IMG/VR virus record: IMGVR_UViG_2695420701_000012
Length of the DNA stretch: 12,776 bases
Source: a virus
Lineage: Duplodnaviria > Heunggongvirae > Uroviricota > Caudoviricetes
Strand: one strand, 5' to 3'
Position 1 is the first letter of the stretch; every line of letters begins with the position of its first letter. The notes under the pieces were generated by a model that was given only the letters and a program-made list of their open reading frames with translations, made no database searches and was not told the origin of the DNA. Shown here in pieces: positions 1 to 12,776 of this stretch. Made by a program: the position numbers and the translations under genes.

Positions 1-182
1 ACACTAAATCAGTAAGTTGGCAGCATCACCCCGCCACAGAACAATTATTGCTTTTGCCGTTGATGACAATAAAGTTTTTATCGCAGGCGTATACCACGGT
101 GGGCAAATCTATGAAACCGATTTTTTATCCAGTGCACCGTAAAACCCCCATCCTTCAGGGCGTGGCGGATATCAAACTTTGG

Positions 183-1265
183 TCATTTTCTCTGGCTGAT
201 CTTTACCGGATAACCATCCCGAAGATCAATTAAGTGCTCCGGTTCAGAAGCAAACCATGCATAAGATCCCCACGCCAATTCTGGTATTGCCTTTTTAAAA
301 GGCAGAGCACTTCTGTCCATAAATGCCGTAAGGAATGCAAGATTTTTCTCGCTGAACCCAGCGTCAATAGCCAAATGAGTGAGAGTAACTTTTCGTTCCC
401 TGTTTATAGGCCCATCTGTCGCAACTACTTCAGTGAAAACTACAAGCATGTCCGAACCCGTTCGGTCCTCTCCCAAATCAATCAAAATAATATCTGGAAG
501 TGCTTTTGAGGCATCAATATTCAGCCCCAATGCTTTTGCCAATACATCATCCTGAGCAACAACTTTATTCCCGGATTCAGACAACCAGAGCACAGTTGGA
601 TTCTTAAGAAAATTAGGAGCAAAAACTTCGATGACGGCCTTAGCTATTGTACTTGACGGGCCCGGAGCTAAAGTTCTCTTCTCTCCATTTGGGAAAGTGA
701 CGACTACGGCATCAGCAGCAATCACTGCCCCTGATTTCAATAAACGCAACCTAGCAAGAGCGGCTTTGTTCAAATGATTTTCTTGCCAGGAACTTATTGC
801 ACTCAGCAGCGAATCTCCTTCAAGCCCGGCATCAAAGAGTGCTGCAAAAGAGCGATTCAAACTGTAACGAGGACGAGAGGATGTGGTGGGTATACCTTTA
901 CGCTCAACAATTGCATTGCAAGGTATTAGGCCATTTTTTATAGTTTCATCACGTATTGGCTCACGCGTATTTTCCGCATACCATGCATCAGCAGGCCTTA
1001 TCTTTTGTTTAGAGAAAGTCATCTTTACCCAGCTTTCTCTGGACGCATCATCAGTAAGAGCAGCCTGCGAATCTCCCATACTTACAACCTGGCTGGGCCT
1101 TATCCATCGCCCCAGCCCCTCAACCGCACCAGCATAAAACATGACAAAAATTGTTTTTGCAGCTATTTCCCGAATTAAATATCCACGATTCTCAGTCCCT
1201 TCAGGGAAAATTAATTGTAATCTTTCCCGGATAACATTCAATGGGGGAACAACAGGCAGATTCAT
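183..1265 (-). CDS. Putative restriction endonuclease partner of the adjacent methyltransferase (type II R-M; family unresolved, possibly BsuBI/PstI-like)
   Basis: 360-aa ORF on the same strand, immediately downstream of the methyltransferase. Its ATG (1263-1265) overlaps the methyltransferase TGA stop in an ATGA arrangement, indicating translational coupling. It shares the low GC (~42%) of the methyltransferase gene. I cannot see a clear catalytic motif by eye, so function is inferred from context. Confidence 0.45.
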   Translation of the reverse strand: MNLPVVPPLNVIRERLQLIFPEGTENRGYLIREIAAKTIFVMFYAGAVEGLGRWIRPSQVVSMGDSQAALTDDASRESWVKMTFSKQKIRPADAWYAENTREPIRDETIKNGLIPCNAIVERKGIPTTSSRPRYSLNRSFAALFDAGLEGDSLLSAISSWQENHLNKAALARLRLLKSGAVIAADAVVVTFPNGEKRTLAPGPSSTIAKAVIEVFAPNFLKNPTVLWLSESGNKVVAQDDVLAKALGLNIDASKALPDIILIDLGEDRTGSDMLVVFTEVVATDGPINRERKVTLTHLAIDAGFSEKNLAFLTAFMDRSALPFKKAIPELAWGSYAWFASEPEHLIDLRDGYPVKISQRK

Positions 1266-3094
1266 GCAATCATCACTCCATAGAAACCAGCGATAGTTCT
1301 CTCAATAATCCGTCTGTGGACGCCAGCATCAATTAACGATTGAATCTCCATCACCTGCTCCAGAGAAGGCAACGGGATTGAATTCAATTCATAGGCCGAA
1401 ACAGCAACACTTCCGCTTATACACCTGAACGCCCGATCGACAACATGCGAATTAAGTAGCATATCAATAACATCAGGGCGAACCGCAGAGAACAATCCGT
1501 TTGAATATACAATATTAATATGGTTTTCAACTACTACGCCACCAGTTTCATCTATAAATCCCTGAGGTAAAATTGCCGCTAAAATCCTTCTGTCCTGTTC
1601 CTTCGATGTTGTCCGCTGAACAAGCACACATTCAGATTTTGTCACAAGGAAACCCTGTTGTGGGGTTATATCGATATAGGGAACATGATTTTTTCTGTCT
1701 GCACTAAAACGAAAACCAGCTGAAGTTATTGATTCCGCCCAGACTAATGGGTAGCTATTTTTTCCTTTCGTCGTACGCAACTGCGACTTAAATCGATTCC
1801 AGACTAACTGACCTGTAGAGACTGAGTATCCCAGATCAGCTAAACGCGTAGACATCTGTTTTAATACATTAAGAAAACAGGCATCATCTTTAACGCGTGG
1901 CAAAAGCCACGTTGCTCCACCTTTTTCTATATCAACATTACCTATTTTCTCAATTTTTGCTTTGTTCAACCCCTTAGGGACAAGTGAGGATACCTGGGCC
2001 CGAACTTTATGTTCTCCCGCCTTGAATGCTGTCAACATTGTTTCCTGGAGAACATCGTCAAAGACCCCATCCCTGTCAGTGACGAAATCAAGGGCATACG
2101 GAGTAGTTTTTTCGGTCAAAAGGGTTCGCAGCGCGGTGAAATACTGCCCACCAAGAAAAGAAGTTGGCGTAAGAAATGCAATAACTCCTGTTTTCTCTTT
2201 AACCATGCGAACAGCTAAGTCGGTGAACAATCCATATAGATTTGCATGACCAAATAACGAACGAGAATATTTTTCTCTCGTTTTAATATCGAGAGTGACA
2301 CGTCCGTAAGGCGGATTCCCTACCACAAGATCATAACCAGAAAATTTATCTTGCTGAAGCGCATCAGCAACAATAATTGTATCTTCAGGCAATCTACGTT
2401 TTACCTTTACACATAGTGGCATTAGTACAGATTCGAGCAATACCAAACTCATCCAAGCCGCAAATGGATCGATTTCTATCCCCTTTAAACGACGACTGAT
2501 TCTCCTCAACATCCATTCAGGGGAAGACCCCTTGTCTTTTTTTAACATTCGAATGGCTACTGGTGCCAAAAATGCACCGCCACCACACGCAGGATCAATA
2601 ACCGATGCATGAGAAAAATCAACACCAGACTTTTCAGCCAGGTCCAAGAGACGCGCTACCAAAGGTGGGGGGGTATAGTAAGCCCCCAATTCCGAACGGT
2701 AAGCGGATGGCAGCATTACCGTATAAATTGACCCAATCAGATATCCAGCGTCCTCCGCCGGAAATTGAGCAATAAGCTCACCTGTTCGTTCAGCGAGCTC
2801 GCGTGCATCACATGGAATGTCTTCTATGTAAACAGTGTGCGGTACTGCCCTCATTTTAATGCTGCTTTTTTGCTTTTTTGCAAGGGTATCCCAATATGCA
2901 GCTACGATGCTGAAGCAGTATGAGCGGGCATGCATCAACCTTGACTGCCCGGTTTTGTAATTGCCCGCATAACCTTTGGCCATGGCTTTACAAGTTTGAT
3001 ATCTTTCCAGATTAGAAAACTCATTATCTGTAAAAAAATCAAAATGTTGCACATTCATAATGTAAAATCCTAATGTATCAAACATGCGGGCCAT
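1262..3094 (-). CDS. N6-adenine DNA methyltransferase, gamma-class amino-MTase (SAM-binding motif I before catalytic NPPY motif)
   Basis: 610-aa ORF. The translation contains DPACGGGAFL (motif I-like, FxGxG) around residue 165 and VVGNPPYGRV (motif IV, NPPY) around residue 263, with about 340 aa C-terminal that could be a target-recognition domain. An alternative start at Met13 (3058) has an AGGA Shine-Dalgarno; the exact start is uncertain. Confidence 0.85.
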   Translation of the reverse strand: MARMFDTLGFYIMNVQHFDFFTDNEFSNLERYQTCKAMAKGYAGNYKTGQSRLMHARSYCFSIVAAYWDTLAKKQKSSIKMRAVPHTVYIEDIPCDARELAERTGELIAQFPAEDAGYLIGSIYTVMLPSAYRSELGAYYTPPPLVARLLDLAEKSGVDFSHASVIDPACGGGAFLAPVAIRMLKKDKGSSPEWMLRRISRRLKGIEIDPFAAWMSLVLLESVLMPLCVKVKRRLPEDTIIVADALQQDKFSGYDLVVGNPPYGRVTLDIKTREKYSRSLFGHANLYGLFTDLAVRMVKEKTGVIAFLTPTSFLGGQYFTALRTLLTEKTTPYALDFVTDRDGVFDDVLQETMLTAFKAGEHKVRAQVSSLVPKGLNKAKIEKIGNVDIEKGGATWLLPRVKDDACFLNVLKQMSTRLADLGYSVSTGQLVWNRFKSQLRTTKGKNSYPLVWAESITSAGFRFSADRKNHVPYIDITPQQGFLVTKSECVLVQRTTSKEQDRRILAAILPQGFIDETGGVVVENHINIVYSNGLFSAVRPDVIDMLLNSHVVDRAFRCISGSVAVSAYELNSIPLPSLEQVMEIQSLIDAGVHRRIIERTIAGFYGVMIA

Positions 3095-3308
3095 AACATC
3101 TCATGGTGGCGCATAGCAAACTGGCCCGAAGAATATCACGCACCAAGTCGATCTCATAACCCGTTATGACAATAAATCTTTGTAGCTGAACTCACTTGGT
3201 GATTTGTCAATCATTCCTGGCCTCCAGTTCGTCCTGAATCTCTTTATCGAGTTCACCGTATTTGTTAGTCCTCATCACTCACGACTTGACTTCCAGAAAT
3301 AACCTTGA

Positions 3309-3665
3309 TTATTCGGGGCTATATTTTGTCACCCTGCGTATCCGCGCTTTCGCATTACGCTCAATCTGGATTAGCTTTTCTATATTTTTTCGCCTTTCCC
3401 GCTCCTCCTGGCGCAAGAGCCTTACATCATCTGCCAGTCTGGTTTCTCTTTTCGCCACAGAGAGCATCCAGTCAAATGGCTCCACAACTGCACCGCAAAT
3501 TTTACAGCGGACCTGACGCTCTTTTTCGTCAACCCGGACAGAAGCGTGATGGCAATATGGTCTTTCCGATGGCTCATAAAGAAAATTAACCTGATTACGA
3601 GGGTTATCCTCTTTTACCGGAAATAAAACAATATTGCTTAACTCATCTTCTGGTTTTATTTCCAT
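3309..3665 (-). CDS. Hypothetical phage protein (about 118 aa, Cys/His-containing, basic C-terminus)
   Basis: Long ORF 3309-3722 in the track. The internal ATG at 3665 is preceded by a strong AGGAGAGGAG Shine-Dalgarno, so I prefer it as the start. Contains CHH and CKICG spacing suggestive of a small zinc-binding element. Confidence 0.5.
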   Translation of the reverse strand: MEIKPEDELSNIVLFPVKEDNPRNQVNFLYEPSERPYCHHASVRVDEKERQVRCKICGAVVEPFDWMLSVAKRETRLADDVRLLRQEERERRKNIEKLIQIERNAKARIRRVTKYSPE

Positions 3666-3722
3666 GCTCCTCTCCTTTGATGCGAATGCCAGCGGTAATT
3701 GAAGCCTGATAGCTAATTTCAC

Positions 3723-4145
3723 TCACAGTACCGCCTCCTGAAAATCACCCTGATAGAAAGCCGGTACACGCTGCATAACTTCACTCTTCCGGCACTCGCG
3801 ACAGATTATGTTCTGATGTCTGTCGTAGCGGCGTATTTCTCCGTCTGGTAATGACCAGATAAGGTCAGGATCAACCACAGATGGTTTCTTCAGATTTGCC
3901 CTTGAGAGTTTTTTGCGGGCGTTTTGCCAGTCCTTACGAGCCTGTTCAGACGGGAATAACCCGTAGCCAGAGTTGTATACATCCCCACTGGCAACCAGCT
4001 CTCTGGCGAGAACGCTTATTAAATATCTTGTCGCCCCGGTTTTAGCTTCCAGTTGTCGTAACGTCTCGCGCCCACTCTGGCGTACGAGTTCAACAACCTG
4101 CCCCTTAATTTTTTCCCGCTCTTCCTGTGTAAATACTTTTGCCAT
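3723..4145 (-). CDS. Hypothetical phage protein (about 140 aa, CRECRK Cys pair near C-terminus)
   Basis: ORF 3723-4160 in the track uses a TTG at 4160; the first ATG is at 4145 (MAKVFTQEE...). Tightly packed with the flanking genes on the same strand. Confidence 0.45.
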   Translation of the reverse strand: MAKVFTQEEREKIKGQVVELVRQSGRETLRQLEAKTGATRYLISVLARELVASGDVYNSGYGLFPSEQARKDWQNARKKLSRANLKKPSVVDPDLIWSLPDGEIRRYDRHQNIICRECRKSEVMQRVPAFYQGDFQEAVL

Positions 4146-4160
4146 AAGCGCCCCCGGCAA

Positions 4161-4886
4161 TCACTTTTCCGACACAATACGACCGGAGGAATCGACAATC
4201 TGTCGAACAATATCCCGGTGCTTGTTCAGCTCCCGCAACGCGGCGCAGACACGCTCCCACTTCTGGACATGACTTTTCGCCCGACGCAGTTCGCGGTTTG
4301 CCATATGCAGCGATGGTAAAACCAGGTCATCCGCTTGCGTTTCGGTGAACGATGGCAACGACTGCACAATGTCCGCCACAGTTTCTGTTTTAATTTCTTC
4401 CTGTGTTGCAGCTTCCTGTACCGGTAACGCAACACCTGCTGGCTGAGGAAAGACTTTACCATCCGTTTCCGCTATGGATGCGGCTTTCGGCTCTGCCGGT
4501 AAATCAGCGCCCGGTATGCAGTACCGAAATTTACCGCCCTGATTCACGCGAATCAGACGCCCTTTGCTGATTGCCATGGCCAGCGATGAATTCGCCCGGC
4601 GGGAGGTAATCCCGAACATCAGTGCCAGCTCATCCGCCGTTTGTGGGCCATGTTGTTCAATCGCCTCAGTCAGCATTTGCGCTGTCACTTTCGGTACCGG
4701 TGACACTGGTTCACTTTCACCAGCCTGAATCAGCCACCACATCGAACCCTTGTTATCCGCTTCACCACGGCGCTTCAGTTTCCACAGTTCGTTGACCGCA
4801 TCTTCACGGCTGATTCCAAGGCGGGACGCCACCACATGTGAAGAGGCTCTTTTCAGTGCTTTCAGTGCGTCAAATACAGTTTCCAT
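4161..4886 (-). CDS. Hypothetical prophage protein (about 241 aa, two winged-helix-like segments)
   Basis: Track ORF begins at a TTG (4904); the ATG at 4886 is preceded by GGAGG at good spacing. Lies immediately downstream of the DnaC-like gene, in the position of lambdoid nin-region genes. Confidence 0.55.
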
Positions 4887-4907
4887 TAAAACATCCTCCA
4901 ACAAAAA

Positions 4908-5654
4908 TTACTTCACAACTCCCGGAAAGCTGACATTTGAACGCCAGCTATCCCAGTTAAACGTCACCCACCGACAACCGTTCATGGTCATGCGGTCCAT
5001 AATCCTCTCACCAAGAAGCGTGCTCATTGCGGCATGATTCAGGTTTGTTAACATCCCGACACTGCACAGTGATGCTGTCCGGCGATCAATTATCTGGTGC
5101 AATACCACCTGCTCGTTTTTCGTCTCCCGCTGAATGCCTATTTCATCCAGGACCAGCAAATCAACCCCGCAAAGCTCCTGTAAAAATTTTTCACCGGATT
5201 TGCCGTTGTCGTAGCTGTCATGCAACACGCTCATGACATCAGACACGGTGACGATAATCACGCTGCGCCCCTTCGCCATCAGCCAGTTACCCATCGCCGC
5301 TGCAAGGTGATTTTTCCCGGTGCCGGTTTTACCGCTGAACACAAAATTCGTGCACCCGGTCATCAGTTCGTCAGCTATGGATTTGGCCTGGCTCAGCGCG
5401 TATTTTTGCCCGTCGTTCTGCACCTGATAATTCGCAAACGAGCATTTGCTGTGCAGAGGCTGGATGCCCGAACGATTCAGGATTTTTTCCACCCGCAACT
5501 GGCGATTCTGGCGGTTAATCTCCTCGCTGCGTTTTCGTCCTTCAGCAAGTTGCCATTCCCGCCACTCCTCCACCGTCCGGTACGGTGGAACCGCCCCCTG
5601 TGGTGCAAGTCTGTGAATACGTTCAAGAACCCCGGCTGCCGCAATGTTTTTCAT
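4908..5654 (-). CDS. DnaC-like / IstB-like AAA+ ATPase replication protein (helicase loader, lambda P analogue)
   Basis: 248-aa ORF with Walker A GKTGTGKNHLAAA and Walker B LLVLDEIG, typical of the DnaC/IstB family. Sits 6 nt downstream of the initiator gene. Confidence 0.85.
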   Translation of the reverse strand: MKNIAAAGVLERIHRLAPQGAVPPYRTVEEWREWQLAEGRKRSEEINRQNRQLRVEKILNRSGIQPLHSKCSFANYQVQNDGQKYALSQAKSIADELMTGCTNFVFSGKTGTGKNHLAAAMGNWLMAKGRSVIIVTVSDVMSVLHDSYDNGKSGEKFLQELCGVDLLVLDEIGIQRETKNEQVVLHQIIDRRTASLCSVGMLTNLNHAAMSTLLGERIMDRMTMNGCRWVTFNWDSWRSNVSFPGVVK

Positions 5655-5660
5655 GCCACA

Positions 5661-6725
5661 TCACCCCCTGAATCCCGGCGGAATTTCGGTATCCGGTTCA
5701 GAAATATGATTCACACAACGCTGGTTGTTCGTGCCGCTTACCGGGAGCAACCAGGGGTTTTCAAAATTCCGGTCCGGCCCAAAAAACGTCGTCGCTCGCT
5801 GAACAAATTCCGTTCCCGCTTTCCCGGTCGCCGCCAGGTATCTCGCGTAACGCCTCACACCATCCAGCATGGTCTCTGGTGGCACCCCCTCGCGCAATCT
5901 GGCCTTCCAGGCACTGAATGCGGATTTCTTCGGGTTTGCCCCGGCACGCAACGGGTATTCCCGCCAGACCTGTTCGAACACATCCGGATAATCCACTCGT
6001 CCCACAGGCTGCCCGGTGTTTTCCGGGGCTACCCGATCGGCTTCCCGCTGAATGGCGGAATCGGCTTCAGGCTGCTGCAGTTGGAGTGATTGCTCCGGCC
6101 TTGCGGTCATCACCTGCTGCACAGCGCCCGAATCGGCTTTCAGCGCATACGCTGAATCGGCTTCCGGTGTCGAGCCTGCTGGCTGACCAGGATTGACGGT
6201 CTGAACATCCCCTGCCTGGTTCGTGGCGTTTTTTACGCCATGGACCATAGTGTTTTGATCTTCTTTATCTGTATCTTTATCTGTATCTGTCGTGACTCGT
6301 CGTGACATGTGCGTGACATTTCGTGACGCGCCGTGACAATCGCCATTTTGTTCCCGCTTTCTTTCCCTCTCTCGCTGCGCCCTCTTGCGCTCTGCAGGAG
6401 ATTTTGCGGTTTGCGAAATATTGCCGTTGTCCTCTTTAAGCACCTGGCGTTTTTCCCATCCAGTGATTAAATCACCATCAAGTACCCGCCCCTGCATCGT
6501 CTGCAAAATTGAATCAATTACCTCTTCTGTCACGTCGAGCGCACTTGCCAAATCTTCTGTCGTGACATCAATGTGACCTCGCGTGACATTTCGTGACGCG
6601 CTCACCAGGAGGTGGATATACACTGCCATCACTGTTGCAATTGGCTGCCCTGACACCCTGGCAATTGTTCGCCACTTAGGGTCATTTGGCATGTCATGCC
6701 ATAATCTGAGCCAGGCGTTAGCCAT
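5661..6725 (-). CDS. Replication initiation protein, YdaU-like (lambda O analogue), with intragenic iterons
   Basis: Track ORF starts at a GTG (6731); the ATG at 6725 has an AGAGGTGA Shine-Dalgarno. The N-terminal region looks HTH-like, the middle is an acidic/basic low-complexity linker, and the C-terminal segment (VDYPDVFEQVWREYP...FSAWKARL) resembles the YdaU C-terminal domain as I recall it. It precedes the DnaC-like gene, as O precedes P in lambdoid replication modules. Confidence 0.65.
   Translation of the reverse strand: MANAWLRLWHDMPNDPKWRTIARVSGQPIATVMAVYIHLLVSASRNVTRGHIDVTTEDLASALDVTEEVIDSILQTMQGRVLDGDLITGWEKRQVLKEDNGNISQTAKSPAERKRAQRERERKREQNGDCHGASRNVTHMSRRVTTDTDKDTDKEDQNTMVHGVKNATNQAGDVQTVNPGQPAGSTPEADSAYALKADSGAVQQVMTARPEQSLQLQQPEADSAIQREADRVAPENTGQPVGRVDYPDVFEQVWREYPLRAGANPKKSAFSAWKARLREGVPPETMLDGVRRYARYLAATGKAGTEFVQRATTFFGPDRNFENPWLLPVSGTNNQRCVNHISEPDTEIPPGFRG
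6287..6336. repeat. Iteron cluster 1: five CGTGAC(A/G) repeats at about 10-11 bp period, preceded by a tandem 12-mer (tctttatctgta x2, about 6262-6285)
   Basis: CGTGAC copies start near 6289, 6299, 6310, 6320 and 6330, read directly from the sequence. The helical-phase spacing is typical of initiator binding sites. Confidence 0.6.
6529..6598. repeat. Iteron cluster 2: (C/T)GTGAC repeats at about 10 bp period plus one inverted copy
   Basis: TGTCACG (inverted) at 6529-6535; CGTGACA at 6561, TGTGACC at 6572, CGTGACA at 6582, CGTGACG at 6592. The 20-mer gcgtgacatttcgtgacgcg is shared with cluster 1. Confidence 0.55.
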
Positions 6726-6796
6726 ACTCACCTCTTCTGATACCGAATCTTTTTACTCACGAGTTGCCGGGAGCGATTCGATATGGCTATTGTCAG

Positions 6797-7222
6797 TCAA
6801 TGTACTGCCACAGCATTTCCTGCCGGGCCACCACGGTTCATCTGATTGAAACCGGCGATTGCCACTGCGACAAAATCATCAGCGTCTCTCACCAGTCGTT
6901 CATGCGTCTCCACCAGTTCCCGAAAATAAGCTGAACTGTGGCTGCGCATTCGAGCCACCAGCGGAGGTGGCATTGCCCTTTCGATCGCAGGTAACAACGC
7001 CTGAATTTTTTCAACAGCGTCAGGGGTGTCTTTATCCAGCCAACGGAAAATCTTTTGGGTGTTGAGATAAAGCGTGTTGTGCTTGCTGTCGTTATGCAGA
7101 ACCGGAAACGTCATTCCCAGTTCGAAATAAACCCTGGTTATTTCAGCTGCCGGAACTTTTTCACCGTCCGGATGCGCCCAGGCTTTCATCGCCATGCGGA
7201 TGTGTTCATGCTTGATTTTCAT
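6797..7222 (-). CDS. ydaT: YdaT-like protein (proposed CII-analogue regulator of Rac / CP-933P-type prophages)
   Basis: 141-aa ORF starting MKIKHEHI..., a size and N-terminus I recall for the YdaT family. Its ATG overlaps the stop of the upstream Cro-like gene (ATGA at 7219-7222). Confidence 0.6.
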   Translation of the reverse strand: MKIKHEHIRMAMKAWAHPDGEKVPAAEITRVYFELGMTFPVLHNDSKHNTLYLNTQKIFRWLDKDTPDAVEKIQALLPAIERAMPPPLVARMRSHSSAYFRELVETHERLVRDADDFVAVAIAGFNQMNRGGPAGNAVAVH

Positions 7223-7482
7223 GAATCAACCCCCGCCGATGGTTGTGTGTTAGCCTGAAACTCAGCAGGCAAGCCGTCAGTTGGGTTGGGGTAGGTTTTA
7301 CTGTCAATCTCATGTGGGGTCACCACCCATCCCGTTGCTTCACACCAACGTAATATTTTTTCTCCTGTAAGTTTTGCACGCCCCGTTATAACGTGGCTGA
7401 CCATCCCTTGGGATGCGCCAACAATCTCAGCAAATGAACTCTGGGTTATATGAAAATGATGCAAATATTCTCCAAGATTCAT
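7219..7482 (-). CDS. ydaS: Cro / YdaS-like helix-turn-helix regulator
   Basis: The translation from the ATG at 7482 (MNLGEYLHHFHITQSSFAEIVGASQGMVSHVITG...) has an HTH-like Q..FAE..G.SQ..VS pattern. It is divergent from the repressor gene across an operator-containing intergenic region. The track ORF extends to 7509 with an earlier in-frame ATG; the true start is uncertain. Confidence 0.7.
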   Translation of the reverse strand: MNLGEYLHHFHITQSSFAEIVGASQGMVSHVITGRAKLTGEKILRWCEATGWVVTPHEIDSKTYPNPTDGLPAEFQANTQPSAGVDS

Positions 7483-7518
7483 AATCCGCCCTATGTGATG
7501 TGTTACCAATGCATAATT

Positions 7519-7581
7519 AATAGCACTGTTATTTTTAAAAGTAAATAGTGATGCTATTTCAAAGTGATTAGCAATCTTATT
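7519..7581. promoter_or_regulatory. Right operator region (OR-like): palindromes AATAGC-N3-GTTATT (7519-7533), AATAGT-N3-GCTATT (7544-7558) and a weaker ATTAGC-N3-CTTATT (7567-7581), between divergent cro-like and repressor genes
   Basis: Inverted-repeat half-sites read directly from the sequence. The first two centres are 25 bp apart, matching the spacing at 8654-8693. The divergent promoters must lie in this 110-bp interval. Confidence 0.55.
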
Positions 7582-7593
7582 AGAATTGGATGT

Positions 7594-8094
7594 ATGAAAA
7601 GAAAATCATTGTCAGACACCGACCTCAACGCCGCCAGAAGACTGAAAGAAATCTGGATGGCAAAGAAATCTCAGTTGGGATTGACTCAGGAACGTGCGGC
7701 GGAAATTATGGGGTTTTCAACACAAGGGGCGGTAAGTCACTACCTAAATGGTCAAACCCCACTAAACCTTGAGGCTGTTCTAAAGTTTGCTGGCTTACTG
7801 AAAGTTCCCCCTGAGTCAATCAGGCCAGACATGGTAGATTTGCTGCAAATTGCAAGGATGTATTGTCGAGAACCACAGCAAGATAACATAGTCGCATTAC
7901 CAGCAGACACAGAACAAACAGAGGATGAACTACCGTTTGCCGTAGAGCCGATGGAACGAGATTTAATCCATACGTTCAGAGCTTTTCCGAAAGAAGATCA
8001 AGAACACATGCTTCAGGAGATGAAAGATAAAAAAGAATCAATGGATCGTACGGTTGCGCGGTGGTTAGCTGCACAAAAAGGCCGTCGCGCCTAA
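7594..8094 (+). CDS. HTH (XRE-type) prophage repressor / TA-operon regulator, PaaR-like
   Basis: 166 aa from the first ATG; the track ORF starts at a GTG (7564) that would overlap the third operator. HTH segment LTQERAAEIMGFSTQGAVSHYLNG. It is the first gene of a three-gene operon with the antitoxin and ParE toxin, the arrangement I recall for paaR2-paaA2-parE2 in E. coli O157 prophage. Confidence 0.7.
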   Translation: MKRKSLSDTDLNAARRLKEIWMAKKSQLGLTQERAAEIMGFSTQGAVSHYLNGQTPLNLEAVLKFAGLLKVPPESIRPDMVDLLQIARMYCREPQQDNIVALPADTEQTEDELPFAVEPMERDLIHTFRAFPKEDQEHMLQEMKDKKESMDRTVARWLAAQKGRRA

Positions 8095-8113
8095 ATCAGA
8101 GGAGATATGTAAA

Positions 8114-8308
8114 ATGAGTACAGTCCTTTCCCCAATGGTTTCAGAATTTGAGACAGTTGAGCAAGAAAATAGTTACAACGAATGGCTGCGGGCCAAAGTA
8201 GCAGCAAGCCTCGCGGATCCCCGCCCGGCGATTCCGCATGATGAGGTAATGGCGGAAATGGAACAAATTATTGCCCAAATTGCTGCTGCAACTCACAGAG
8301 GTGAATAA
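8114..8308 (+). CDS. Small antitoxin (PaaA-like) of the ParE-family toxin
   Basis: 64-aa acidic ORF with a GAGGAG Shine-Dalgarno upstream. Its TAA stop overlaps the toxin ATG (TAATG at 8306-8310). Confidence 0.65.
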   Translation: MSTVLSPMVSEFETVEQENSYNEWLRAKVAASLADPRPAIPHDEVMAEMEQIIAQIAAATHRGE

Positions 8309-8598
8309 TGTTACCCGTTTTATGGCTACCATCTGCTCGTGATGATTTGCGCCAGATCGTAGCCTACATAGCTAAAGAAAATCCCGCGGCAGCACGCAGA
8401 ATGAAAATTCGAATTGAAACATCCGTTTTGCCGCTCACAGAGCATCCTTACCTGTATCCTCCAAGCGAGCGAGTTCTTGGTCTTCGTGAAATTGTAACTC
8501 ATCCTAACTACATCATCCTTTACCGAGTAACAGCATCAAGCATAGAAGTAGTAAATATTGTGCATTCTCGAAGACAGTATCCAGGCAAAAACAGTTAA
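8308..8598 (+). CDS. parE: ParE/RelE-superfamily toxin
   Basis: 96 aa. The N-terminus (LPVLWLPSARDDLRQIVAYIAKENPAAARR) and C-terminal region (YIILYRVTASSIEVVNIVHSRR) match the ParE pattern as I know it. Translationally coupled to the upstream antitoxin. Confidence 0.8.
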   Translation: MLPVLWLPSARDDLRQIVAYIAKENPAAARRMKIRIETSVLPLTEHPYLYPPSERVLGLREIVTHPNYIILYRVTASSIEVVNIVHSRRQYPGKNS

Positions 8599-8614
8599 TT
8601 ATTCCCGCCGACAG

Positions 8615-8638
8615 AACCACCTTAGGGTGGTTTTTTCT
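8615..8638 (+). terminator. Rho-independent terminator after the TA operon
   Basis: Stem aaccacc (8615-8621) / ggtggtt (8626-8632) with loop ttag, followed by a T run (ttttttctt). Confidence 0.6.
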
Positions 8639-8653
8639 TGCCCCAACAAAAAC

Positions 8654-8695
8654 AATAGCGATGCTATTTACATCAAAAAATAATGATGCTATTGT
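8654..8695 (+). promoter_or_regulatory. Left operator/promoter (OL/PL-like): AATAGC-GAT-GCTATT (8654-8668, perfect palindrome) and AATAAT-GAT-GCTATT (8679-8693) overlapping a candidate -35 TTTACA (8667-8672) and -10 TATTGT (8690-8695), 17-bp spacer
   Basis: Same palindrome family and same 25-bp centre spacing as the sites at 7519-7558. The promoter hexamers are read by eye and are plausible for sigma70. Confidence 0.5.
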
Positions 8696-8874
8696 TTCAG
8701 GCGTCAACCCACCCCGCCCCACAGAATGCAGGGCAATACTTCGAGTTACCAGACAGTGGTCAGGGGTTAAGTAGCCAGCCCGAGGCGTAAGAACATGACG
8801 GCAGGGTTCAATCTTTAACTATGCAGCAGGTTTTTTGTTCCGCCACCCCGGCGTTAAGGGGAAATGAGGTCAGC

Positions 8875-9027
8875 ATGGATACTATCGATCTTGGCAACAA
8901 CGAATCTCTGGTGTGCGGCGTGTTCCCTAACCAGGATGGAACGTTTACCGCCATGACGTATACCAAAAGCAAAACGTTTAAAACCGAATCTGGCGCGCGT
9001 TGCTGGTTAGCCAGAAACACTGACTGA
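8875..9027 (+). CDS. Hypothetical small protein (50 aa), first gene downstream of the PL-like promoter
   Basis: ATG at 8875 preceded by GAGG with 5-nt spacing. The track ORF extends upstream to 8821 but has no Shine-Dalgarno there. The stop overlaps the next ATG (ATGA). Confidence 0.4.
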   Translation: MDTIDLGNNESLVCGVFPNQDGTFTAMTYTKSKTFKTESGARCWLARNTD

Positions 9028-9404
9028 TGAGGCTGACGATGGAATTTAAAGATTTACCGTCTGATGTACAGAAAACAGCAGCTCATACATTGCATTCTGT
9101 GCTGCGAGAAATCGGGAAAGATATTGCAAGCGAGCCAGCAAAAGATCTGGCCCGGAAAATCAAGACCGCTTTCGTTGAGCTTTATAATGTTGGCACTGAC
9201 TCTGAAACTGTCGAGACCAAGACCGTAAGTTCACCAATATTCTCACTTGAGCCAAGCGTATTATCAGGTGAAATATGCACCGAGATTTCCAGCGAACTGC
9301 TTCCGGTAATACGAGAAGCAATTCGCCGTCGCGGTTTGGATGGAAGTTATGATCATGACGTTCTGCAAGTTCTCAGGACAATGGTGACTTCACTGGGGAT
9401 TTGA
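9027..9404 (+). CDS. Hypothetical phage protein (about 121-125 aa)
   Basis: ORF coupled to the upstream small gene. An alternative ATG at 9039 has a better Shine-Dalgarno (GAGG). No motif recognised. Confidence 0.5.
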   Translation: MRLTMEFKDLPSDVQKTAAHTLHSVLREIGKDIASEPAKDLARKIKTAFVELYNVGTDSETVETKTVSSPIFSLEPSVLSGEICTEISSELLPVIREAIRRRGLDGSYDHDVLQVLRTMVTSLGI

Positions 9405-9573
9405 TCCCTGCGTCCTCTAAGCTTTTGATATAGCGGTCCTCCAAGAAGCGGTAAATTTTGTCGAAATCATCTTTTCCCTCTGGTTTATTCAGAGGATTAC
9501 AGGACCCGTAAGTAGCGGCATACATTTCAACCGTTTTATCAAAAATATAAGAGACAAATTCTTCTTTAGTCAT
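9373..9573 (-). CDS. Hypothetical small protein (66 aa), AT-rich cargo gene with a structured leader
   Basis: ATG at 9573 preceded by an AAGAAGGA Shine-Dalgarno. The track ORF extends to 9747, but that extra stretch is better explained as a leader. Overlaps the 3' end of the convergent plus-strand gene by 32 bp. Confidence 0.45.
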   Translation of the reverse strand: MTKEEFVSYIFDKTVEMYAATYGSCNPLNKPEGKDDFDKIYRFLEDRYIKSLEDAGIKSPVKSPLS

Positions 9574-9773
9574 ATAGATTTCCTTCTTGGTTATTCGGGA
9601 TAAGAAGGATACCACCTCGCCTGACGTGGTTAAAAGCAGGCACACAACGCGAAATGACGCGGCGGTAAGTATGGCGGAGTTATTCCTTCCCCGTTGAGGA
9701 CACCGGGTTGTCAGGTTGACCATACGCTTAAGTGACAACCACGCCACAACACTCCATGTTGATTGGTACCTTT

Positions 9774-9814
9774 GGCGGCATCAGTTTCATTGCTGGCTGA
9801 TGTCCGCCCTTTTT
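9774..9814 (+). terminator. Intrinsic terminator candidate at the start of repeat element X
   Basis: Imperfect inverted repeat ggcggcatcag (9774-9784) / ctgatgtccgcc (9797-9808) followed by ctttttaaa. Repeated in the other copies of the module (for example about 10889-10929). Confidence 0.5.
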
Positions 9815-10298
9815 AAAGTGAATTTTGTGATGCGGTGAATGCGGCTCAGCGCACGCGGCACAGTTAAAAAGCGATTAGTTCCCCCGTATCGGGTGGTTAT
9901 GGGTTTCCCTGTATCCGGCGTTAATTGTTAACTGGTTAACGTCACCTGGAGGCACCAGGCACCGCATCAACAAAGTTCACTTCGGTGATGAAAGGAAAGA
10001 GAAAATGTTGAATGTAGCTATTGAAAACCAGAACGGGTGGAATTATAGTGCACCTGCACCTCATAAAACGGGTGCCGGGATTGCTACCCCGAAGTCATTC
10101 ACGGCGCATAACCGCGCTCAGGCGGTTTTTTTATGCGTAATGCACAGCCACATTCAAATTATGGTGGGGCGTGCGGGGCAGTCGCAAGACTGGCCGGGTT
10201 CTCGAGTGACCGGTATTTCCACCCCTGTACGTCTCACCACCCATGAGATTGCTACCTCCGGTGGTGAGTTAATCAAATTCATCGCGGAGGCTGCCATC

Positions 10299-10427
10299 AT
10301 GGCTACTACCCTTTCTCACCCTTGTGTAACCGTAGAAAACGGTCGCGCTGTCACTACGTCTGTTGCGGTTGCAGAGTTCTTCCACAAACGACACNCAGGA
10401 TATTCACCGGGTCTTGGCGGGGTATAA
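10299..10427 (+). pseudogene. Truncated Rha-family antirepressor N-terminal fragment (copy A)
   Basis: MATTLSHPCVTVENGRAVTTSVAVAEFFHKRH matches the N-terminus of the intact Rha ORF at 12455, but diverges after about 32 codons (an N at 10395) and stops at 10427. Confidence 0.4.
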
Positions 10428-10694
10428 ATACCATGCGCATTGACTGAATTCGCAAACAAAAACAGACGCGCGATACCTGGATAGTCGGTCTGCATAGTCA
10501 GATATCTGGCTGCGAATTTGATAAATATCACCGCCCTTTTCGGAAACATAAGTTCCGTCCGGGAGTTGATTATACGAACCATCTCCATGGGGGATCGTTC
10601 TCCTGAATCCTAGTGAGAGCATATATTTATGAAGCCCTTCGTAATCCTCTGGCTCAGCATTATATAGTTCTACTCTGGCGAGATACGTTGGCAT
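10404..10694 (-). CDS. Hypothetical small protein (96 aa), AT-rich cargo gene with a structured leader
   Basis: ORF 10404-10700; the ATG at 10694 has better spacing to the TAAGGAA Shine-Dalgarno than the ATG at 10700. The leader is homologous to that of the 9373-9573 gene. No family assignable from memory. Confidence 0.5.
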   Translation of the reverse strand: MPTYLARVELYNAEPEDYEGLHKYMLSLGFRRTIPHGDGSYNQLPDGTYVSEKGGDIYQIRSQISDYADRLSRYRASVFVCEFSQCAWYLYPAKTR

Positions 10695-11253
10695 ATTCAT
10701 TTCCTTACTGGTTGTGTGAGAACTTCAGTAAAGATACCACCAAAGCCCGGAGGTGGTGAAATAAAACCGGGCACAACACGAAGGCGCATTTCCGGTATCC
10801 ATAAAGAGTCGGTCTTGTCTGTGAAATTTAAATGGTGGGAGTGCGCTTCCGGTTGTAAATAACGACATTGCTGTGTGAAGTACCAGTTGGCGGCATCGGT
10901 TTAATTGCTGGCTGATGTCCGCCCTTTTTAAAGTGAATTTTGTGATGCGGTGAATGCGGCTCAGCGCACGCGGCACAGTTAAAAAGCGATTAGTTCCCCC
11001 GTATCGGGTGGTTATGGGTTTCCCTGTATCCGGCGTTAATTGTTAACTGGTTAACGTCACCTGGAGGCACCAGGCACCGCATCAACAAAATTCACTTCGG
11101 TGATGAAAGGTGAGAGAAAATGTTGAATGTAGCTATTGAAAACCAGAACGGGTGGAATTATAGTGCACCTGCACCTCATAAAACGGGTGCCGGGATTGCT
11201 ACCCCGAAGTCATTCACGGCGCATAACCGCGCTCAGGCGGTTTTTTTATGCGT

Positions 11254-11274
11254 NNNNNNNNNNNNNNNNNNNNN
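11254..11274. other. Assembly gap (21 N); a second gap of 10 N lies at 11787-11796 and a single N at 10395
   Basis: N characters in the sequence. Both runs fall exactly at boundaries of the repeated module, typical of scaffolded repeat collapse. Confidence 0.95.
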
Positions 11275-12049
11275 TTGATTGGTACCTTTGGCGGCATCAG
11301 TTTCATTGCTGGCTGATGTCCGCCCTTTTTAAAGTGAATTTTGTGATGCGGTGAATGCGGCTATGCGCACGCGGCACAGTTAAAAGTCATGTTAGTCCTT
11401 ATTGGTTTGGGTGGGAAAGCCAACTGTAATTGTTAACTGGTTAACGTCACCTGGAGGCACCAGGCACCGCATCAACAAAGTTCACTTCGGTGATGAAAGG
11501 AAAGAGAAAATGTTGAATGTAGCTATTGAAAACCAGAACGGGTGGAATTATAGTGCACCTGCACCTTATAAAACGGGTGCCGGGCGTGGAAACCCGAACG
11601 TTACTCGAGCGCATAGCCGCGCTGAAGCGGTTTTTTTATGCGTAATGCACAGCTCCATTCAAATTATGGTGGGATGTGCAGGGCAGTCGCAAGACTGGCC
11701 GGGTTCTCGAGTGACCGGTATTTCCACCCCTGTACGTCTCACCACCCTTATGGTCGTGGAAAACCTCGGTGGTGAGTTAATTAACTNNNNNNNNNNCGGA
11801 GGTGGTGAAATAAAACCGGGCACAACACGAAGGCGCATTTCCGGTATCCATAAAGAGTCGGTCTTGTCTGTGAAATTTAAATGGTGGGAGTGCGCTTCCG
11901 GTTGTAAATAACGACATTGCTGTGTGAAGTACCAGTTGGCGGCATCGGTTTAATTGCTGGCTGATGTCCGCCCTTTTTAAAGTGAATTTTGTGATGCGGT
12001 GAATGCGGCTATGCGCACGCGGCACAGTTAAAAGTCATGTTAGTCCTTA

Positions 12050-12093
12050 TTGGTTTGGGTGGGAAAGCCAACTGTAATTGTTAACTGGTTAAC
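12050..12093 (+). promoter_or_regulatory. Candidate sigma70 promoter in block Y2 (-35 TTGGTT, 17-bp spacer, -10 TGTAAT) followed by GTTAAC-TG-GTTAAC (12080-12093)
   Basis: Hexamers read by eye; the same arrangement occurs in copy C (11402-11445). Block Y1 copies carry a poorer -35/-10 at the equivalent position. Confidence 0.45.
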
Positions 12094-12262
12094 GTCACCT
12101 GGAGGCACCAGGCACCGCATCAACAAAATTCACTTCGGTGATGAAAGGTGAGAGAAAATGTTGAATGTAGCTATTGAAAACCAGAACGGGTGGAATTATA
12201 GTGCACCTGCACCTCATAAAACGGGTGCCGGGCGTGGAAACCCGAAATCATTCACGGCGCAT

Positions 12263-12285
12263 AACCGCGCTCAGGCGGTTTTTTT
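12263..12285 (+). terminator. Conserved hairpin plus U7 (attenuator-like terminator) inside the leader ORF
   Basis: Stem aaccgc / gcggtt with 6-nt loop followed by ttttttt. Also present at 10110-10132, 11225-11247 and 11615-11637. In copy C the stem carries a->g, giving a G-U wobble that preserves pairing. Confidence 0.4.
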
Positions 12286-12454
12286 ATGCGTTAAGCACAG
12301 CCACATTCGCATTATGGTGGGGCGTGCAGGGCAACCGCAAGGCTGGCCGGGTTCCGTGATGACCGGTATTTCCACCCCTGTACGTCTCACCACCCTTATG
12401 GTCGTGGAAAACCTCGGTGGTGAGTTAATCAAATTCATCGCGGAGGCTGCCATC

Positions 12455-12776
12455 ATGGCTACTATCCTTACCCTTTCTCACCCTGACGTAACCATCGAAA
12501 ATGGTCGCGCTGTCACTACCTCTGTTGCGATCGCCGAGTTCTTTGGCAAACGCCACGAACGAGTGTTGGATAAAATTCGCAATCTGGACTGTTCAGCAAA
12601 ATTCACTGAGCACAATTTTGTGTCGAGCGAATACACCGACTCAACCGGGCGCAAACTCCCAATGTACCAAATCACCAAAAACGGCTTCGTTTTCCTGGTG
12701 ATGGGCTTCACGGGCAAAAAAGCCGCCGCATTCAAAGAGGCATACATTGCTGAGTTCGACCGCATGGAGGCCGAAC
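12455..12776 (+). CDS. rha: Rha-family phage regulatory protein / antirepressor (Bro-N/Rha-type N-terminal domain), 5' part only; runs off the window
   Basis: Translation MATILTLSHPDVTIENGRAVTTSVAIAEFFGKRHERVLDKIRNL... fits the Rha/AntA N-terminal domain pattern. GGAGG lies 8 nt upstream of the ATG. The frame is open to the window end and is also open upstream to the ATG at 12158 (see findings). Confidence 0.75.
   Translation, partial: MATILTLSHPDVTIENGRAVTTSVAIAEFFGKRHERVLDKIRNLDCSAKFTEHNFVSSEYTDSTGRKLPMYQITKNGFVFLVMGFTGKKAAAFKEAYIAEFDRMEAE

Follow-up and report, generated by a model that had tools for sequence, protein, structure and literature searches.

Layout of the repeated module

The window analysed here, a stretch of 12,776 nt from a Caudoviricetes record in IMG/VR, ends in a region (9759-12776) that raises the question of whether one prophage carries a real array of antirepressor control modules or whether the arrangement was produced by assembly. 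A module of ~0.5 kb is present four times within 3 kb, always in the same orientation (copies A, B, C and D). A preliminary description had proposed these four copies, and both direct-repeat families and alignment confirmed them. The direct-repeat families, of 300 nt with 92-100% identity, are far above chance, and the copies start 1115, 390 and 648 nt apart. The region contains the following features.

9376..9573, minus strand: small hypothetical ORF of flank 1, taken from the ORF list; last unique prophage sequence before the repeated module
9761..9814, plus strand: copy A, block X1, a DicF-like sRNA that carries an intrinsic terminator (38.8 bits to the Rfam DicF model, E 3.5e-6; hairpin 9777-9804 and T run)
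9821..9974, plus strand: copy A, STnc100-like element (Rfam STnc100, 31.6 bits; Y1 at 9847-9922 and the conserved "anchor" at 9923-9971)
10021..10049, plus strand: copy A, promoter-like site TTGAAA-17-TATAGT, 7 nt upstream of isrK
10056..10132, plus strand: copy A, IsrK sRNA of type 1 with terminator (RF01394, 64.8 bits against a gathering threshold of 50); elements a1 = ATTGCTAC and b1 = TCATTCACGG
10157..10244, plus strand: copy A, C4 antisense RNA (RF01695, 78.1 bits; core b' 10199-10209, a' 10212-10225)
10245..10290, plus strand: copy A, target sites a2 GATTGCTACC and b2 TTCATCGCGGAGG, b2 overlapping the Shine-Dalgarno sequence of Rha
10300..10394, plus strand: N-terminal fragment of a type 1 Rha, 32 codons, stopping at the n
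10395, no strand: single n within the N-terminal part of the copy A Rha, joining two unrelated pieces (contig join)
10396..10873, minus strand: flank 2, sequence from another prophage, with a small minus-strand ORF at 10404-10700
10874..11253, plus strand: copy B, with X2, Y1, anchor, Z2 and IsrK type 1 (11171-11247), from Rfam and alignment
11254-11274, no strand: run of 21 N, scaffold gap
11275..11786, plus strand: copy C, with X1, Y2, anchor, Z1, IsrK type C (11561-11637), C4 type C (11662-11749) and a2
11787-11796, no strand: run of 10 N, scaffold gap
11797..12776, plus strand: copy D, with partial flank 2, X2, Y2, anchor, Z2, IsrK type D (12209-12285), and then, also on the plus strand, its cognate C4 (12310-12397), a2/b2 (12401-12446) and a Rha gene that starts at 12456 and runs off the window end

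The ORF of flank 1 has no Pfam match, and a hypothetical minus-strand CDS occupies the equivalent position in two related loci (L001 and L125). Copy B lacks a C4 and ends just past its IsrK terminator, at the N run, and copy C breaks off ahead of b2 and Rha. The frame that follows copy D matches Phage_pRha (PF09669) with 107.3 bits against a cut-off of 29.9 (6.1e-31). The preliminary description has only the last copy followed by an intact Rha gene; that gene, however, leaves the window before its end, and copy A is itself followed by the 32-codon Rha fragment.

Alignment and motif coordinates of the four copies define three variable blocks, of which X is the 5' part of the DicF-like hairpin.

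Block X: X1, copy A 9759-9795 and copy C 11275-11311; X2, copy B 10874-10910 and copy D 11923-11959
Block Y: Y1, copy A 9847-9922 and copy B 10962-11037; Y2, copy C 11363-11427 and copy D 12011-12075
Block Z: Z1, copy A 9972-10007 and copy C 11477-11512; Z2, copy B 11087-11122 and copy D 12125-12160

As first described, X and Z move together while Y assorts independently, with four of four combinations seen among the window copies. The three-block scheme is incomplete, however: variation also affects the loop and the linker of IsrK, the loops of C4 and the target that follows C4. Conserved spacers of 20-64 nt lie between the variable blocks. Natural loci are mosaic for X, Y and Z as well, and therefore mosaicism alone is no proof of an artefact. 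Because a sister assembly (L029) links X1 with Z2, the co-variation of X and Z in the window is without demonstrated biological meaning.

The label of an antirepressor leader is correct but imprecise, as the module is a chain of described RNA elements, in the order DicF-like, STnc100-like, IsrK (with the isrK promoter) and C4, which leads over the a2/b2 target at the ribosome-binding site to Rha. C4 antisense RNA scores 78.1, 76.7 and 76.3 bits at 10157-10244, 11662-11749 and 12310-12397, respectively, which exceeds the gathering threshold of 45, and IsrK scores 61.2-67.7 bits in all four copies. Each IsrK has its own promoter-like site 7 nt upstream (the site of copy A recurs at 11136, 11526 and 12174) and a terminator hairpin with a T run. 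The c4-a1b1 motif (RF03163), which overlaps isrK, reaches 20.6-25.7 bits and stays below its threshold of 46.7; a1/b1 elements are nonetheless present by complementarity. Scores for STnc100 (RF02076; 29.9-31.6 bits, a partial match to model positions 22-154 of 206) and DicF (RF00039; 38.8 bits for X1 and 28.6 bits, E 2e-3, for X2) also lie below their gathering thresholds of 47 and 48, respectively. In relatives, ydfB/ydfC-like genes stand upstream of the DicF-like element and dicB downstream, and this synteny supports the candidate DicF-like assignment.

Joins between the copies and arrangement in relatives

All three copy-to-copy transitions contain N (10395, 11254-11274 and 11787-11796), and no N-free sequence spans even one copy junction. 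That two copies end at the runs of 21 and 10 N was evident from the start; the A/B junction, by contrast, had been placed at 10880, whereas the true discontinuity, overlooked in the first reading, is the single n at 10395. When 10300-10900 is compared with 5,426 complete E. coli genomes, the matches begin exactly at 10396 and have another left neighbour, a ydfB-like gene rather than Rha; in these genomes flank 2 comes after DUF1391 and ydfB-like genes. The 10395 junction, which is the only inter-copy junction open to testing by sequence search, returned 0 matches in the 5,426 genomes, IMG/VR, GTDB genomes and JGI metagenomes. We considered whether the n is a mere low-quality base and rejected this, as the sequences to its left and right occur in different contexts in nature and the homology changes at precisely this base. 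Single N's in three related drafts (L029, L005 and L129) likewise fall at exact homology switch points.

Some of these joins could instead be genuine, if an IS-rich, Shigella-like source carried scrambled prophage remnants in which certain joins (e.g., that of the Rha fragment to flank 2 at 10395) arose by real deletion or recombination and others are artefacts. IS elements do lie in and around the module on contigs of the sister genome, and flank 2 in L129 is interrupted by an IS ~8 nt from the start of the window piece at 11797. Furthermore, L092 carries IS1, the N of L005 coincides with an IS end, and the module of FDAARGOS_943 is adjoined by IS1 and IS600. However, none of the joins in the window shows an IS end, the one at 10395 bears an n and has no counterpart in any collection searched, and the single N's of the related drafts always sit at an exact homology switch. 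A partly real rearrangement is on this evidence unlikely.

A true reiteration of the leader within one prophage, with gaps where near-identical repeats were hard to close, would fit the four same-orientation copies within 3 kb and the two copies that stand side by side in the sister assembly. The spacing, however, is irregular, the units are unequal in content and truncated at different points, and they include flank sequence of a different prophage. Relatives also argue against such an array. Complete genomes carry one leader per prophage (L001, L123, L124 and L126), a rule that rests on fetched loci and IMG/VR scans, with similarity search reporting one place per record. Genomes hold the module in a median of 2 places and up to 11; in the complete genome VL7S7, three matching loci lie far apart, at 0.62, 1.21 and 4.80 Mb. 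Of roughly 120 anchor-bearing IMG/VR loci fetched by anchor pattern, only L029 has two modules, which are joined there by N, and no other IMG/VR contig has anchors at a distance of 385-415 nt. No N-free array appeared among these loci or in the IMG/VR-wide scan. One candidate natural tandem, L092, was rejected, as its two anchors are 1.8 kb apart with IS1 and N between them and the leader is present at only one. A phage database gave only partial matches of ~78%, in Stx2a-converting phages, which are uninformative on the array.

The sister assembly is 99.93% identical to the window over 3688-9573, a stretch of 5.9 kb upstream of the array. It nevertheless contains two copies rather than four, in another phase: X1-Y1-Z2, then N, then Y1-Z1 followed by type C and Rha. 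The window arrangement is reproduced neither there nor in the fetched complete-genome loci, which have one module each, although the assemblies used for comparison (L029, L129 and L005) are themselves N-joined drafts. Individual pieces do recur. Positions 11427-11786 of copy C are 100% identical to L040 and 99.7% identical to L029, and 10396-10740 is 100% identical to L129. This contig, a separate one in the sister genome, also holds the natural continuation of the type 1 Rha fragment, a cognate type-1 module, and copy D as contiguous, N-free sequence (99.8% identity); we regard copy D as a genuine haplotype. With relatives lacking an N-free example, a sister assembly that differs in copy number and phase, and a copy A C4 predicted from its pairing to be non-functional on its own target (see below), a real array in one prophage seems hardly credible. 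The reading of the window as a regulatory leader reiterated in an unusual way has no support.

The blocks might also derive from different strains of a mixed sample that were collapsed and chained, and not from several prophages within a single genome. The block variants are indeed common population alleles, but single complete genomes already hold three or more modules of different types, and the sister isolate genome has types 1, C and D among its own contigs. A mixture is not needed because single genomes already carry several module types, and we consider it very unlikely.

C4 specificity and the composition of copy A

Loops a' and b' of C4 are predicted to pair with a2/b2 and would thereby block Rha translation, and the IsrK region would carry a1/b1 as decoy copies. 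In copy D, a'/b' pair with a2/b2 at -8.3 and -16.5 kcal/mol, a complementarity of the P1 immI type. Recognition elements of C4 and their target sites co-vary without exception in natural E. coli-type prophages: all 42 natural modules that could be parsed are cognate, their C4 loops matching their own targets. Of 65 modules from related loci, not counting the window copies, 23 fell outside the strict regex as other variants, truncated or N-containing and were left out. The a- and b-elements assort independently, with three a-types and at least four b-types. Repression of antirepressor translation by C4 in vivo would be expected from work on P1 and Gifsy-1 (PMC8198154, PMC4825925).

Copy A departs from this pattern. 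Its C4 recognition core is of the copy C type and mismatched to its own targets, with duplex energies of -1.7 and -7.1 kcal/mol compared with -8.3 to -8.5 and -14.1 to -18.4 kcal/mol for cognate pairs. Because the window lineage is absent from complete E. coli genomes (best full-length identity 87.7% for copy A and 90.7% for copy D, with none of A-D present at full length and high identity), that set is unable to give the true structure, and block-wise k-mer painting was used instead of a whole-copy haplotype search. At k=25, copy A is identical to type-1 references over 9976-10201 and 10223-10394 and to C-type references over 10176-10242; the type switches fall where both types agree, over only 26 and 20 nt. 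The swapped C4 region has a best complete-genome match of 95.8% and 0 exact matches in three collections. Because its C4 breaks a complementarity kept in 42 of 42 natural modules, we read copy A as an internal chimera in which variants of different prophages are mixed.

The same mismatch could be functional if the C4 loops of copy A, non-cognate for their own Rha mRNA, were cognate for the antirepressor of a neighbouring or co-resident prophage, in an array that is partly real with more than one leader. A prophage of this kind would silence a rival's antirepressor in trans through the copy A C4 and leave its own unrepressed. We give this possibility very little credence.

Probable origin of the arrangement and known systems

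Taken together, the N-marked joins, a junction that is absent elsewhere, the occurrence of one module per prophage, the disagreement with the sister assembly and the chimeric C4 of copy A suggest that the four-copy array is very probably an artefact, produced when a prophage module present in several copies was collapsed or wrongly scaffolded, and not a real feature. The source genome would carry several lambdoid (Qin/Rac-like) prophages, presumably at least three, each with one early-left control module. A short-read assembler may have been unable to phase the variable blocks across the conserved 20-64 nt stretches between them, leaving pieces that end at block boundaries and, in the copy A piece, mixing variants of different prophages. 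A scaffolder would then have chained four pieces with N (1-10394, 10396-11253, 11275-11786 and 11797-12776). The true module of the window prophage is probably flank 1-X1-Y1-Z1 followed by a type-C IsrK, C4 and Rha. Pieces that end at repeat or variable-block boundaries, N at joins, and same-lineage assemblies that disagree on copy number and phase are shared with mis-scaffolded multi-copy prophage repeats in short-read drafts. Compared with known cases of this kind, the mechanism in the window (small k, consensus collapse or scaffolder behaviour) is deduced, as is the collapse itself, from the sequence. The copy A switches at 26 and 20 nt need a small k or a consensus-type assembler, which we count against the artefact reading.

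The initial caution that copy number, order and cargo linkage are unreliable is supported by the N joins, the absent junction, the single module per prophage in relatives, the discordant sister assembly and the copy A chimera. Region 9759-12776 is best treated as a quality flag, its copy number, order and linkage being unfit for annotation or for claims of regulatory reiteration, and the Rha gene at 12456 should not be linked to the window prophage.

The DicF sRNA belongs to the ydfABC-dicF-dicB operon of the Qin prophage. The window elements resemble it in position, which in relatives is between ydfB/ydfC-like genes and dicB, and in having a 5' single-stranded part and a terminator hairpin, but they differ in scoring below the Rfam threshold (38.8/28.6 versus 48 bits) and in the divergence of X1 and X2 in the 5' part. 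The immI operon of P1/P7 is described as c4 antisense RNA-icd-ant1/2 (Citron & Schuster 1990, as reported in PMC8198154). Like it, the window module encodes a C4-family RNA in the leader of an antirepressor transcript, with a'/b' complementary to upstream a1/b1 and downstream a2/b2, b2 lying over the ribosome-binding site, and its specificity types co-vary as in P1/P7 heteroimmunity. In contrast to immI, the window element belongs to a chromosomal lambdoid prophage and has no icd between C4 and the antirepressor, which is of the Rha family, and b2 overlaps the Shine-Dalgarno sequence of Rha itself. In the isrK-orf45-anrP locus of Salmonella Gifsy-1, the IsrK sRNA has its own promoter and a leaky terminator (Hershko-Shalev et al. 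2016, PMC4825925) and is followed by a structured region and then an antirepressor-like gene; the middle of IsrK pairs downstream (PMC4825925). The window IsrK likewise has a promoter-like site, in a position that agrees with PisrK (PMC4825925), as well as a terminator and the same a1/b1 to a'/b' logic, but the sequence similarity is at the family level only and function of the E. coli-type window element is predicted.

The module itself is genuine, although it is already known from P1 immI, Gifsy-1 isrK-anrP and the Rfam C4, isrK and DicF families. Co-variation of C4 with its target offers a simple test for chimeric assemblies of the module locus and is consistent with co-resident prophages keeping separate antirepressor control.

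Four leader-module copies and the breaks between them

The preliminary description reported four mosaic copies of the leader module and leaned toward a duplicated locus whose copy number, order and linkage had become unreliable after scaffolding. Repeat families of 300 nt, at 92-100% identity and with spacings of 1115, 390 and 648 nt, give four copies (A to D, starting near 9759, 10874, 11275 and 11923). A four-way alignment with motif coordinates confirmed the mosaic of variable sub-blocks: A equals C and B equals D in blocks X and Z, and A equals B and C equals D in block Y. The variation extends beyond these blocks to the IsrK loop, the IsrK linker, the C4 loops and the post-C4 region. The N runs described at 11254-11274 and 11787-11796 are present, but a third break, the single n at 10395, had been overlooked, and therefore all copy-to-copy transitions contain N. 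The N-bounded pieces stop where conserved and variable blocks meet, and the second (10396-11253) ends directly after the IsrK terminator, where A and C diverge from D. We conclude that the four-copy array is very probably no real feature, which supports the leaning toward a scaffolded, duplicated locus.

At 10395, the Rha fragment belonging to copy A runs up against flank 2 (10396-10873, before copy B). Complete-genome matches begin exactly at 10396; in those genomes, flank 2 has as its natural left neighbour a ydfB-like gene from a different, Rac-like prophage, and the Rha fragment follows flank 2 instead of preceding it. A search for the 10395 junction pattern returned no match in IMG/VR, GTDB genomes or JGI metagenomes, and covered this junction only, the joins at 11254-11274 and 11787-11796 being N runs.

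The complete-genome loci fetched carry at most one module each; per genome, matching places number 2 at the median and 11 at most. In genome VL7S7, for example, flank 2 lies at 0.62 Mb, a C-type module at 1.21 Mb and a type-1 module at 4.80 Mb (types 1, C and D are IsrK/C4/Rha variants). Only one fetched IMG/VR locus, L029 (IMGVR_UViG_2671180603_000009), holds two modules, which are joined by N, and when all of IMG/VR was scanned for anchors spaced by 385-415 nt, it was again the sole return. We consider it highly unlikely that the array is real as assembled.

L029 is 99.93% identical to 3688-9573 of the window and therefore represents this prophage as carried by a close relative. It runs flank 1 (the sequence before copy A), X1, Y1, Z2, type-1 IsrK, C4 (b' of type D, a' of the GUGGAAA type), a2 (GUGGAAAAC) and N, followed by Y1, Z1 and a type-C module with type-C Rha. 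L029 thus has two copies versus four in the window, links X1 to Z2 rather than Z1, and contains a C4/target chimera unlike that of the window; a mismatch of this kind, in the number of copies, their phase and the type of chimera, is what results when a multi-copy repeat is resolved arbitrarily. L129, another contig from that genome, holds an unbroken copy D (99.8%) as well as a type-1 module that is fully cognate, together with IS insertions and further single-N joins.

IS elements, with ends resembling IS1, IS2/IS3 and IS600, are inserted in or beside the module in related draft genomes.

IS-affected sites in comparison loci
L129, reverse strand, ~4770-6937 and 8140-8790
L005, 1939
L092, 8418-9370

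In L129, flank 2 is broken by an IS some 8 nt away from the point at which the window piece 11797-12776 begins, and an inverted copy of block Y1 is joined after a single N. The insertions and the inversion suggest an IS-rich (Shigella-like) lineage in which assembly of this locus is generally unreliable. That IS-driven rearrangement made the array partly real is improbable.

Our best guess is that the true prophage would read flank 1-X1-Y1-Z1 and then IsrK/C4/Rha of type C, an arrangement that L092 and the final part of L029 also show. On this type-C reconstruction, the type-1 and type-D modules would come from prophages carrying flank 2. The drafts used for comparison have flaws of their own, and mosaicism for X, Y and Z also occurs in natural loci.

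C4 pairing and the chimeric copy A

About 120 related IMG/VR loci were fetched by an exact 37-nt anchor, together with several from complete genomes. Pairing elements co-vary in all 42 modules that were parsed in full: a', in the C4 joint, matches a1 in the IsrK loop and the downstream a2, and b', in the C4 hairpin-2 loop, matches b1 in the IsrK linker and b2, a site overlapping the Shine-Dalgarno sequence of Rha.

Pairing elements in the window and pairing energies
10077-10104, 10199-10225, 10245-10290: pairing elements
12230-12257, 12352-12378, 12401-12446: pairing elements
a':a2, cognate -8.3 to -8.5 kcal/mol; non-cognate 0 to -4.1 kcal/mol
b':b2, cognate -14.1 to -18.4 kcal/mol; non-cognate -3.1 to -11.2 kcal/mol

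Three a-types (GUGGAAA, UUGCUAC, UUUGCAC) and at least four b-types assort independently. This co-variation follows the heteroimmunity logic to be expected in such a family and is no new mechanism; with such a two-part specificity code, co-resident prophages could each keep control of their own antirepressor. Agreement of a' and b' with their targets doubles as a check for chimeric assemblies.

By this check, copy A is a chimera. It is identical to natural type-1 modules (L008, L048, L051, L090, L093 and L126, the last from VL7S7) over 9976-10201 and 10223-10394. Where natural type-1 modules have a' UGUAGCAA and b' CCGUGAUGA, copy A carries a C-type core (a' AUUUCCAC, b' CUCGAGUGA), which matches C-type references exactly over 10176-10242. 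Its C4 pairs with its own a2 and b2 at the non-cognate energies of -1.7 and -7.1 kcal/mol, and the type switches lie inside shared sequence 26 and 20 nt long. The exact chimeric 59-mer had no match in IMG/VR, GTDB genomes or JGI metagenomes, whereas its cognate version had 8 in IMG/VR; among complete E. coli genomes, the best match to 10120-10310 reached 95.8%. A mixture of strains is a quite unlikely source of the array.

Prophage setting and elements of the module

The window covers the early part of a prophage, lambdoid and Qin/Rac-like, from an E. coli-type genome, and 31-3998 is 99% identical to prophages of the complete genomes VL7S7 and FDAARGOS_943.

Gene content, in window order
183-3094, minus strand, BsuBI/PstI-type restriction enzyme and HsdM-like methylase (leftmost)
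right of this pair, replication genes
right of the replication genes, YdaT, cro-like and cI-like genes
8821-9404, DUF1391 gene and an unnamed ORF (relatives here have DUF1391, ydfB, ydfC)

These relatives continue with a small minus-strand ORF, a leader of ~0.58 kb, Rha, dicB, exonuclease, xis and int. The restriction-modification pair within the prophage (endonuclease of 360 aa, methyltransferase of 610 aa) is 99% identical to those of VL7S7 and FDAARGOS_943, and a ParDE-like toxin-antitoxin adjoins it in relatives. Mutually unrelated small minus-strand ORFs occupy the same site just ahead of the module, one in flank 1 (9376-9573) and one in flank 2 (10404-10700), each with a GC-rich hairpin adjoining its start codon (CCACCTCGCCTGACGTGG and CCACCAAAGCCCGGAGGTGG, respectively). 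Neither ORF had a Pfam match, and that of flank 2 is without annotation in the complete genomes fetched.

Rfam identified IsrK (RF01394) in all four copies at 61-68 bits and C4 antisense RNA (RF01695) in A, C and D at 76-78 bits, copy B being cut before C4. A promoter-like TTGAAA-17-TATAGT lies 7 nt upstream of every IsrK, and the reading frame after copy D contains a Phage_pRha domain. The module has the same architecture as the P1/P7 immI operon, in which, according to PMC8198154 (citing Citron & Schuster 1990), full antirepressor repression needs C4 antisense RNA, and as Gifsy-1 isrK-orf45-anrP, in which IsrK pairs through its middle part with sequence downstream and short IsrK is trans-acting (PMC4825925).

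At relaxed Rfam thresholds, block X is recognised as a terminator-bearing, DicF-like sRNA (38.8 or 28.6 bits, below the gathering score of 48), Y together with the anchor shows similarity to STnc100, and the c4-a1b1 motif overlaps the IsrK region, the latter two also below gathering. Terminator hairpins close both the DicF-like element and IsrK. X1 (9761-9809, 38.8 bits) and X2 (10874-10924, 28.6 bits) differ in their 5' single-stranded part and hairpin; in DicF proper, single-stranded regions carry the target-pairing sequence, and by analogy the two variants might have different targets. The anchor TTAACTGGTTAACGTCACCTGGAGGCACCAGGCACCGCATCAAC, at 9923-9971 and again at 11038, 11428 and 12076, is the 3' part of the STnc100-like match. 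Naturally it precedes either the IsrK/C4/Rha module or an unrelated small gene starting MIAHHFGTDE, the latter in about half of loci (~63/126).

A long ORF from ATG 10005/12158 crosses the isrK promoter, IsrK and C4 and enters Rha without a change of frame.

Long-ORF regions
window, 10005-10394 and 12158-12776
L001, 14451-15305
L123, 3213-4061
L126, 2386-3228

PGAP annotation starts the Rha CDS at the equivalent of this ATG, and the Pfam 'Ash' match (PF10554) is exactly the part that overlaps both RNA genes. The N-terminal ~98 codons may be translated non-coding RNA genes, as possibly is the Ash family itself. The Rha start at 10300/12456 has a GGAGG, which is covered by b2.
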